Source: Cytophagales bacterium (GTDB taxonomy: Bacteria > Bacteroidota > Bacteroidia > Cytophagales > Microscillaceae). From it: DNA of 29,158 bases. This document shows positions 17,769 through 19,827 of this stretch, piece after piece. The notes below the pieces were generated by a model. It had not been told where the DNA came from and did not search any database. It worked only from the letters and a program-made list of their open reading frames with translations. The stretch is taken from the NCBI GenBank assembly GCA_013298105.1, contig JAAFJK010000329.1, positions 1 to 29,158 of the forward strand, written 5' to 3'. A program made the translations under genes and the position numbers. Positions within the stretch are counted from its first letter, which is position 1. Each line of letters opens with the position of its first letter.

Positions 17769-18911
17769 ATGATAACAAATCTACACATCAAAAATTTTAA
17801 ATGCCATAAAGATACTAATTTGGCATTGGGCAATCTTACTTTGCTTTGTGGACAAAACGGGGTAGGCAAGTCATCTGCCATTCAAAGTTTGCTACTTTTG
17901 AGGCAAACAGCATCTAAACAAATGTTCCCAGTAGGTTTGAGTCTTAACAAACCTTTATGTTACATTGGTGAAGCAAAAGATGCCATTTCTCAACCATTCA
18001 GAGATAAAATCGTGGAGTTTACTTTGAAATATAAGAACTTTTCAGAAGATAAAAGCTCATTTGATGAAATAGAACAAATATTTGATTACCTTATGGAGAA
18101 TGAACAATTAGATTATATAAAATCCATGCGTCCTACAGGTGTATTTTTAGGTTTTGGATATTTTGCAAACACAAATATTTTTTCTCATAACTTCCAATAT
18201 GTCAGTGCTTTGCGTGGCATAGTGTATGAACGAAGTGATTATGATGTAGAAATTAAAAAACAGATTTCTATAGAAGAAGGCAAAGCCGAACTTGCCGCAC
18301 ATTTTTTGTGTAAATACCAAAATGAACTTATCTTGCCTGAAATGTTACATACATCTGAAACAAATAATACACTTTTGGCACAAACAACCGCTTGGGAAAG
18401 AGAAATAAGCAAAGGGATAAAAGTCATACCCAAAAAAGAAGGGGAAACGTACACAATACACTATATTTATGAAGGTTCTGAACAAGAATTTACAGCCAAA
18501 AACGTAGGCTTTGGTATCTCCTATTCCTTGCCTGTGATAGTCGCTATCCTTTCTGCCAAAAAAGGCGCACTTATATTGATAGAAAACCCTGAAGCGCACT
18601 TACACCCTTACGGACAGGCAAAACTCGCAGAACTTATGTGCATAGCGGCTCAGGCAGGCATACAAATTATCGTAGAAACCCACTCTGACCATATCGTGAA
18701 TGGCGTACTCGTACAGTGCAAACGCTTTGAGCAGGCAGGCAAGGGCGTGAACCGCGAAAATGTACGCATACATTATTTCGAAAGAGCTGAAGACAGTACC
18801 GCTTGTAACACTACCGAAGTGGAGATTTTGGAAGGAGGGCGCATAACCTATCCGCCTGTTGGTTTTTTTGACCAAATAAGCAAAGACCGCAAAACACTTA
18901 TGGGCTTTTAG
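17769..18911 (+). CDS. ABC/SMC-head-type ATPase (AAA_21/DUF3696-like), paralog of 26245-27399
   Basis: Walker A GQNGVGKSS. Walker B LILIENPE. H-loop ETHSDH. NVGFGISYSLPVIVAIL and ENPEAHLHPYGQAKLAELM are conserved with the paralog. ATG at 17769; the GTG at 17736 lies inside the upstream terminator. Confidence 0.7.
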   Translation: MITNLHIKNFKCHKDTNLALGNLTLLCGQNGVGKSSAIQSLLLLRQTASKQMFPVGLSLNKPLCYIGEAKDAISQPFRDKIVEFTLKYKNFSEDKSSFDEIEQIFDYLMENEQLDYIKSMRPTGVFLGFGYFANTNIFSHNFQYVSALRGIVYERSDYDVEIKKQISIEEGKAELAAHFLCKYQNELILPEMLHTSETNNTLLAQTTAWEREISKGIKVIPKKEGETYTIHYIYEGSEQEFTAKNVGFGISYSLPVIVAILSAKKGALILIENPEAHLHPYGQAKLAELMCIAAQAGIQIIVETHSDHIVNGVLVQCKRFEQAGKGVNRENVRIHYFERAEDSTACNTTEVEILEGGRITYPPVGFFDQISKDRKTLMGF

Positions 18912-18912
18912 C

Positions 18913-19827
18913 ATGAAAAAATTACACGCATTTCTTGATAATCTTGCACAAACGTATGTGCAAGAAAGTTTAGGCGAAAACACTACAGAAAATAAACGCC
19001 ATTTTCTCCAGCAACTTTCGCAAATGCTTGAGCCTTTTTATCGTGAAAAAGGAAATGTTTTTTATGATAAAAACGACATAGACGCATTTTGTAACTTTAT
19101 GCATGAACTGCATGAAGATGCTGAATACATGACGAATTGGCGCGAACAGTTAGGCGACATATTGCAAAACGCGCTTTCTTGGCGCGAAAAGCCCGCACAA
19201 GATACACAAGCATTGTATTTCTTTTGGGATATGCTCAAAGAATTGGAAGGCAAAAAAGGCATCTCATTGCTCAAAGATAATACACTTTCAGAACTTACAG
19301 AGCGATTATTGCAAGAAAATAGCCCATGTCATATTCTTGTAATGCCTCCACATACCAAAAATCCATACGAAGGTAAAGAATCTATAGCCACATTCAAAGA
19401 TACTTATGAAACGCAAAACATGACCTTGCCTGCCTTTGCCAAAATACAATATGCCACACACAAACTACAGGTTTTGACATGGATAAAAAATCATCGACAA
19501 CCGTTGGTCATGAACAAAAGCAACAAACATGGCTTAGATGGAAAAGGCGCACACAAATTAAATAAAGGCGACACTGTATCAGTTTTGTATTGTAGCACCA
19601 TCGAGGAAGCTCAGAAACTGCTTGATGATGCCATAGGCGATAAAAGACTATTGGAACGTAACCTTTTCAATTATGACGAAAAGGTAGGCAAGTTTATTGC
19701 CTTTTTTGACGAAGGTGATACGCCACAAAATCAATATCACGCTTTTCATTTTGAAACAGAAGCAGATGCCATAAAAAAGATACCCAACGAAATCATGAAG
19801 GAACTGAAAGAAAAATATGACCTCTAA
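18913..19827 (+). CDS. Hypothetical protein coupled to the ATPase (stop and start 1 nt apart)
   Basis: ORF begins 2 nt after the ATPase stop. No recognisable motifs. Confidence 0.5.
   Translation: MKKLHAFLDNLAQTYVQESLGENTTENKRHFLQQLSQMLEPFYREKGNVFYDKNDIDAFCNFMHELHEDAEYMTNWREQLGDILQNALSWREKPAQDTQALYFFWDMLKELEGKKGISLLKDNTLSELTERLLQENSPCHILVMPPHTKNPYEGKESIATFKDTYETQNMTLPAFAKIQYATHKLQVLTWIKNHRQPLVMNKSNKHGLDGKGAHKLNKGDTVSVLYCSTIEEAQKLLDDAIGDKRLLERNLFNYDEKVGKFIAFFDEGDTPQNQYHAFHFETEADAIKKIPNEIMKELKEKYDL

Follow-up and report, generated by a model that had tools for sequence, protein, structure and literature searches.

Can two genes of a three-gene anti-phage system serve without the third? The question is raised by positions 17769-19827 of a 29,158-nucleotide (nt) contig from a Cytophagales bacterium (JAAFJK010000329.1; the whole contig is called the window here), where an ATPase gene, nsnB, is followed directly by a predicted RNase gene, nsnC. 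Menshen is an anti-phage system composed of NsnA, NsnB and NsnC (Millman et al. 2022, as cited and analysed in Li et al. 2025, PMC12065111). In the analysis of Li et al. NsnA (ParB-DUF262 plus ParBDB) is the proposed sensor, NsnB (an ATP-binding cassette (ABC) ATPase with DUF3696) the proposed transducer, and NsnC, in which an inactive-PIN domain is joined to a variable effector domain, mostly a BECR RNase, the proposed and polymorphic effector (PMC12065111). That study, the only in-depth one on Menshen, cannot explain how NsnA signals to NsnB. We report that the pair at 17769-19827, hereafter the focal pair, has no nsnA beside it and is best described, judging from its sequence, as a Menshen-derived two-gene variant and not a canonical member. 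The pair probably works without an adjoining sensor gene, since the two-gene form has been kept intact in several related bacteria.

The focal genes encode an NsnB-type ATPase and an NsnC-type effector

The PADLOC NsnB profile matched residues 1-379 of the focal ATPase at 7.9e-99. AriA was the runner-up (7.6e-35; 119 bits vs 330 for NsnB) and the match to PtuA was weak (~1e-12). Searches of Pfam returned AAA_15 (2.2e-30), AAA_21 (7.9e-24) and DUF3696 (1.9e-11), the composition expected of a Menshen NsnB, in which an ABC ATPase of the AAA_15/OLD-ABC type carries a C-terminal DUF3696 helix. The motifs are likewise those of NsnB (Table 1): GxxxxGKS, a Walker B motif ending in EN and not DE, GxG and not SGG, and a His-loop. 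The EN and GxG variants were defined as NsnB-specific in PMC12065111. A sequence search of solved structures returned none for any Menshen component, and the closest solved sequence relative of the focal NsnB was OLD 6p74, for which the best stretch covered only the N-terminal P-loop region (residues 1-43).

In the list of open reading frames (ORFs) nsnB begins at a GTG at 17736, inside a hairpin at 17716-17743. Because all homologs begin with MI..L.I.NFK, at the equivalent of 17769, and the GTG falls within the hairpin, we place the start at the ATG at 17769, in agreement with a preliminary description of this DNA. The hairpin stands between the upstream lipoprotein-like gene and nsnB, and 25 nt separate it from the ATG. 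The nsnB stop codon (TAG, 18909-18911) is followed by a single C and then by the nsnC ATG at 18913, exactly the 1-nt spacing that had been described.

The second gene, for 304 residues, had been called an unrelated ORF. This was wrong. PADLOC NsnC profile PDLC03909 matched its full length at 2.1e-42, and a high-confidence structure model has a PIN-like N-domain and a BECR-type RNase C-domain. Position directly downstream of nsnB, an inactive PIN-like N-domain and a C-terminal effector, mostly a BECR RNase, are what is expected of a Menshen NsnC. An exhaustive profile search recovered 397 cluster representatives of NsnC (a word-index search gave 4 matches), and 117 homologs were aligned to examine conservation. 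His206 and His276 were invariant, and His279 (97%), Asp255 (99%), Ser223 (91%) and Glu267 (91%) were nearly so; all strongly conserved columns lie in the C-terminal third. No N-terminal column was more than 83% conserved and no acidic column exceeded 74% D/E, and the N-domain of the focal NsnC is by its residues an 'inactive PIN' under the scheme of Li et al. A Menshen-type BECR domain is toxic (bioRxiv 10.64898/2026.08.28.747851).

The preliminary description had assigned the pair a host-like GC content. The composition is not native: nsnB and nsnC have a GC content of 0.375 and a third-position value (GC3) of 0.33-0.35, against 0.45-0.47 and 0.45-0.50, respectively, in the flanking genes. 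It does lie above the 0.31 of the second module described below and is hence intermediate, which looks like an older acquisition rather than part of the core gene set. A search of 16000-21500 for mobile-element hallmarks found just short direct and inverted repeats at chance level, and the window contains no tRNA genes. There is no evidence for a defined insertion cassette.

Table 1. Positions and properties of the focal pair, its surroundings and the second Menshen module.
Feature	Position	Strand	Length	Properties
nsnB	17769-18911	+	380 aa	ABC-type ATPase (AAA_15/AAA_21) with C-terminal DUF3696 tail
NsnB motifs (focal copy)				Walker A GQNGVGKS; Walker B LILIEN; signature-like NVGFGIS; His-loop ETHS
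nsnC	18913-19827	+	304 aa	Directly downstream of nsnB, 1-nt gap
nsnC, N-terminal domain	18913-19461	+	~residues 1-183	PIN-like Rossmannoid fold (predicted)
nsnC, C-terminal domain	19462-19827	+	~residues 184-304 plus stop	BECR-fold RNase-like effector (predicted)
Terminator-like hairpin, G+C-rich	17716-17743	none		12 pairs, loop of 4; T/A runs on both sides (bidirectional-like)
Upstream ORF	16418-17713		431 aa	Putatively lipoprotein-like from its N-terminal sequence
Island nsnA, short form	27396-27995	-	199 aa	PADLOC NsnA 1.1e-33, profile positions 40-190 of 385
Island nsnB	26245-27399	-	384 aa	PADLOC NsnB 7.8e-100; Pfam AAA_15, AAA_21, DUF3696; GC 0.306, GC3 0.203
Island nsnC	25419-26252	-	277 aa from TTG (273 aa from ATG 26240)	Six PADLOC NsnC profiles, including PDLC03909

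NsnA is missing from the focal locus and from several related loci

In Menshen an NsnA with ParB-DUF262 and ParBDB is encoded directly upstream of NsnB. None is found at 17769-19827. A tblastn search of the window with seven full-length NsnA proteins detected nothing besides the copy in the second module (27465-27983), consistent with the earlier statement that no DUF262 partner adjoins the focal ATPase. The focal locus thus shows three of the four sequence-level hallmarks of Menshen and lacks NsnA.

The same arrangement, NsnB-NsnC without NsnA, is present in at least four other Bacteroidota genomes, each time between different housekeeping genes. In L004, from a Cytophagales metagenome-assembled genome (MAG), the pair lies between topA and an FtsX-type permease gene, and in L019 between a PAS histidine kinase gene and an RmlD-like gene; it follows uvrA in L022 and a poly(A) polymerase/CCA-type gene in L023. 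By BLASTP the respective NsnB proteins are 54%, 56%, 63% (over 64% of the query) and 54% identical to the focal copy; in a MAFFT alignment the four are 56-59% identical to it. NsnC is encoded downstream of NsnB in all four. Searches by tblastn of about 4-6 kb on each side of the NsnA-less loci found no NsnA remnant. The NsnB of L022 (5001-6401) has 466 residues and probably contains an insertion, being about 80 residues longer than its relatives.

The closest relative of the focal NsnB is that of L003/L018 (69% by BLASTP, 71-73% by MAFFT). Its gene starts 75-97 nt from a contig end, and the short upstream stretch lacks the conserved NsnA C-terminus. All of the nearest NsnB relatives are from Cytophagales or other Bacteroidota MAGs, and NsnA is directly upstream in six loci whose NsnB is 48-54% identical to the focal copy (L005, L007, L008, L014, L024 and L025), and in five or six genome and metagenome loci with a more distant NsnB.

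A conserved third gene in place of nsnA was considered and rejected: the housekeeping genes that flank the five NsnA-less loci, upstream and downstream, differ from one locus to the next. The extra downstream ORFs in L018 and L023 had no PADLOC match.

In two Nostoc plasmids, L028 (2501-3926) and L029 (2501-3932), a DUF3696 ATPase is followed by an ORF of about 112 residues, with no NsnA detected by profile search. Upstream of the ATPase is a gene annotated 'HNH endonuclease domain', which adjoins it in L028 and is separated from it by about 1.3 kb in L029. These plasmids may show yet another, different combination of partners for ATPases of this family.

The two-gene form is old and appears to be maintained by selection

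In a bootstrapped neighbour-joining tree the focal NsnB formed one group with those of L003/L018, L019, L022 and L023 (80% bootstrap). The L004 NsnB was placed apart, with that of the NsnA-bearing L008 (80% bootstrap). This placement suggests that nsnA was lost at least twice independently. Within the NsnA-less group pairwise NsnB identity is just 56-71%, which argues that the NsnA-less state is old, and all NsnB motifs are retained throughout. The ratio of nonsynonymous to synonymous substitution (dN/dS) between L019 and L022, both NsnA-less, was 0.16 for nsnB and 0.28 for nsnC; for nsnB of the focal locus and L018 it was 0.15, with dS near saturation. By these estimates the two-gene form is evolving under purifying selection. 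L018 encodes an NsnC of a different type (PDLC03889) despite having the closest NsnB, so effectors were still being exchanged within the NsnA-less group. The complete three-gene system of L014 includes a near relative of the focal NsnC (245 bits), and the two-gene form therefore derives from the three-gene form.

These data bear on the possibility that the focal pair is a decaying remnant, that is, a former three-gene Menshen from which nsnA was deleted and which is now non-functional and heading to pseudogenisation. Most of the sampled NsnB loci have NsnA, sporadic domain loss and pseudogenisation in Menshen are mentioned by Li et al. (PMC12065111), and the focal NsnC deviates at two conserved columns, all of which would fit a remnant. 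However, both ORFs are full length with intact motifs and no NsnA debris is left. The age of the NsnA-less state, the dN/dS values of 0.15-0.28 between its members and the exchange of NsnC types within the group also argue against decay. We regard a dying remnant as quite improbable. Since four other genomes carry NsnB-NsnC without NsnA, the NsnA-less state is, on comparison of these loci, not one-off decay.

A second, diverged Menshen module lies in the same window

About 6 kb from the focal pair, on the other strand, is a low-GC island with a second Menshen module in the order nsnA-nsnB-nsnC (27995 to 25419, minus strand), with gene overlaps of 4 nt (nsnA/nsnB) and 8 nt. Its composition is strongly atypical (GC 0.31, GC3 0.20-0.25). 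The focal and island NsnB proteins align end to end with about 33-34% identity (BLASTP E=7e-55). They are paralogs, as the preliminary description had proposed, with the shared blocks that it listed (NVGFGISY, IENPEAHLHP, GQ.K..ELM and ETHSDH) visible in the alignment. Nor do the two ATPases fall in unrelated families; both match the PADLOC NsnB profile over its full length, and for both the runner-up, AriA, scores about 200 bits less.

The preliminary description further held that the two loci had swapped partners, with one ATPase family coupled to unrelated effectors. The N-terminal halves of the two NsnC proteins are indeed not alignable by BLASTP, their N-domain subtypes differ, and they best match different PADLOC NsnC profiles. 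Nevertheless, the direct alignment (28% identity over about 150 C-terminal residues, E=2e-9), the NsnC profiles and the fold matches refute this reading, which we consider hardly credible. The island NsnC has the same PIN-like plus BECR architecture, and the two proteins share their top fold matches. Both partners are NsnC. The idea of a modular ATPase-plus-effector family was borne out in that Menshen, with NsnA-B-C and polymorphic NsnC effectors, had already been described as such a family (PMC12065111).

The real difference between the modules, as read from their gene content, is the sensor gene. It is absent at 17769-19827 and shortened in the island. Compared with the seven full-length NsnA proteins, the island NsnA consists of the ParB/DUF262 core only, without the ParBDB C-domain and without the FQR motif I, and has DGLER for DGxQR; it falls below the Pfam threshold. 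ParB-DUF262 plus ParBDB is universal in NsnA according to Li et al. 2025 (PMC12065111), and the island NsnA is atypical for this reason. Both Menshen modules of the window thus have a reduced or absent sensor.

The island NsnB branches outside the whole Bacteroidota clade that includes the focal NsnB. Because of this placement and the 34% identity, the two nsnB genes are read as separate acquisitions and not as a duplication. The suggestion that one copy was acquired horizontally is plausible for the island; it does not single out that copy, in that the focal genes also have a lower GC content than their neighbours.

The presence of two modules raises the main rival to a self-sufficient pair, namely that NsnA is supplied in trans, from the short island gene or another copy, with one sensor serving two NsnB-NsnC pairs. 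In the window itself, 6 kb lie between an NsnA-less pair and a Menshen that includes NsnA. The NsnA-less L004 (scaffold_1) and the complete NsnABC system of L007 (scaffold_27) likewise belong to a single genome, MAG JAAFJG01 (Cytophagales bin11), and 53 genomes are known to have 2-3 Menshen systems. On the other hand, such co-occurrence is so far known from 2 genomes only, and the island gene encodes a reduced NsnA, as listed above. A shared NsnA interaction surface is doubtful because the two NsnB proteins are only 34% identical. Furthermore, in a published AlphaFold3 screen not even cognate NsnA and NsnB gave a confident complex (PMC12065111). Supply in trans is therefore judged unlikely, though it deserves to be taken seriously.

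A working model for the NsnB-NsnC pair

We favour, with moderate confidence, the reading that 17769-19827 is a bicistronic Menshen-derived nsnB-nsnC operon that has lost nsnA and encodes an ATPase-held RNase whose cue is most likely self-sensed. We infer the function of the pair from its sequence and from analogy with related systems. NsnB would form an ATP-dependent oligomer, as in the published NsnB4-NsnC2 AlphaFold3 model, PARIS and Septu, and its paired DUF3696 tails would clamp the NsnC N-domain and keep the RNase silent. An infection cue would alter the ATPase state of NsnB. NsnC would then be released or activated and would cleave RNA, which would halt phage replication, possibly at the cell's cost. 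The cue would most likely be sensed by NsnB-NsnC itself, given that no NsnA is encoded alongside. In the AlphaFold3 models an NsnB tetramer clamps the NsnC N-domain with pairs of DUF3696 tails, like PtuA-PtuB of Septu and AriA-AriB of PARIS (PMC12065111); the published NsnB4-NsnC2 models are of Menshen systems other than the focal pair.

An ATPase that holds an RNase silent might also be expected of a toxin-antitoxin-like addiction or stress module, a selfish two-gene cassette in which NsnB just neutralises the NsnC RNase. BECR RNases are typical of toxin-antitoxin systems and polymorphic toxins, and the pair is inserted between unrelated housekeeping genes in each genome, as selfish cassettes are. 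Mobile-element hallmarks are absent around the focal pair, however, and at 380 residues, with its ATPase site conserved, NsnB greatly exceeds the size that an antitoxin needs. In addition, all characterised relatives in which an ATPase of this class binds a nuclease (PARIS, Septu, Gabija and Menshen) are defence systems. An addiction module is thus a very improbable account of the locus.

Several observations weigh against a self-sensing pair. NsnA is upstream of NsnB in 15 of 15 viral-contig loci, in the 2 gammaproteobacterial plasmids inspected and in 11-12 genome or metagenome loci; the viral-contig loci were from an alignment-based scan, and a single-protein scan gave 0 viral and 4 metagenome loci. 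Its presence in most sampled NsnB loci implies that the sensor is as a rule required or advantageous. Two of the NsnA-less cases (the window and JAAFJG01) are in genomes that also encode NsnA elsewhere. In the work cited in PMC12065111, anti-phage activity of Menshen is shown only for the three-gene Solibacillus system. No promoter was found in the 25 nt between the hairpin and the nsnB ATG, where a sigma-70 scan did not rise above the shuffled expectation. The NsnB tree is a small one, of 19 sequences, and the gene contexts sampled were limited in number. Finally, the focal NsnC has Leu at the positions of R198 (86% R in the family) and E208 (83% E), and from its residues its catalytic competence is not certain. 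The R198L change is common to its whole subfamily, which conserves Lys at 202 instead, and E208 is replaced in the island NsnC too.

Returning to the bicistronic operon, a broader proposal can be put forward tentatively. Either the NsnB-NsnC core would be an autonomous, PARIS-like self-sensing immune module to which NsnA is an accessory, dispensed with at least twice in Bacteroidota, or one NsnA would drive several diverged NsnB-NsnC modules in trans. If either is true, the published sensor-transducer-effector model would have to be revised. Menshen is experimentally validated and its mechanism is unsolved; an NsnA-less pair kept under selection suggests that the core may act alone or be serviced in trans, and in either case it offers a simpler natural two-gene construct for probing the Menshen trigger.

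None of the papers searched describes an NsnA-less Menshen. Because the survey of Li et al. was seeded on NsnA, pairs of this kind lay beyond its reach (PMC12065111). Presumably they would also escape tools built to demand the complete set of three genes. This leaves a detection gap, and Menshen-type immunity may be under-counted in Bacteroidota. What is new here is the NsnA-less pair; Menshen itself and its polymorphic NsnC were already known.

Other genes in the window

The lipoprotein-like ORF upstream of the hairpin had no match in Pfam, PADLOC or NCBIfam. Most other genes in the window are ordinary chromosomal ones, and the contig is most likely part of the chromosome of a Cytophagales-like bacterium; they encode an Fe-S protein, an adenylate cyclase, histidine kinases, a DegT aminotransferase and a TetR regulator. 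Between the two Menshen modules, an ORF of 216 residues (22079-22729, minus strand) matched PADLOC PD_DExK (1.4e-14) and had no Pfam match. It adjoins a gene for an 826-residue protein (22812-25292, minus strand) with Pfam matches to MVP_shoulder (9.7e-31) and Vault_3 (2.7e-9), a bacterial homolog of the eukaryotic major vault protein. This vault-like gene lies directly between the PD-(D/E)XK ORF and the low-GC island, and had no PADLOC or NCBIfam match.

A second low-GC patch (GC 0.295) comprises 10091-12808 (plus strand) and 13090-13806 (minus strand). The first encodes a 905-residue fusion of an excisionase/MAD1-like helix-turn-helix domain, a PglX-like methyltransferase region and a CcrM-like N6/N4 DNA methyltransferase. 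The second encodes 238 residues with no family match, possibly a nuclease partner of the methyltransferase fusion. Li et al. note a linkage to BREX, Type I/III restriction-modification systems or methylase genes for 27.9% of Menshen loci (PMC12065111).

Comparison with known systems

The focal pair resembles Menshen most closely. The NsnB with a DUF3696 tail and EN and GxG motifs, the PIN-like plus BECR NsnC directly downstream and the 1-nt spacing are all shared, as are the polymorphism of NsnC between close relatives and the presence of a second copy in the genome, a known pattern. It differs in having neither an upstream NsnA nor a remnant of one, and the three-gene definition of Li et al. 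2025 would exclude it.

As to toxins with a BECR RNase, the likeness of NsnC to those of contact-dependent inhibition (CDI) and LXG systems (CdiA-CT, 5t87_E; YxiD-CTD, 9v8i_B) is one of fold only, at 14-17% identity. Unlike them, the focal NsnC has no secretion domain and no immunity gene; its BECR domain is joined to a PIN-like one, and it is paired with an ATPase.

OLD and Gabija GajA proteins have a Toprim domain fused to the ATPase, whereas the focal NsnB, at 380 residues, ends in DUF3696 and has no Toprim. PARIS (AriA plus AriB) is also a two-gene combination of ATPase and nuclease, the trigger is sensed by the same ATPase oligomer that holds the effector, and the focal NsnB matches AriA profiles (7.6e-35). 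However, PARIS has an AriB-type DUF4435 Toprim protein beside the AriA ATPase; the focal partner is a PIN-like/BECR RNase without a Toprim or DUF4435 match, and the DUF3696 tail is not a feature of AriA. In Septu (PtuA plus PtuB) the ATPase dimer binds one effector asymmetrically through C-terminal domains, an analogy drawn in PMC12065111. Septu is defined by the HNH nuclease PtuB, and no HNH match was found in the focal NsnC. By analogy the pair would work most like PARIS or Septu, and it belongs to neither because its effector is of another type than the Toprim and HNH nucleases of these systems.

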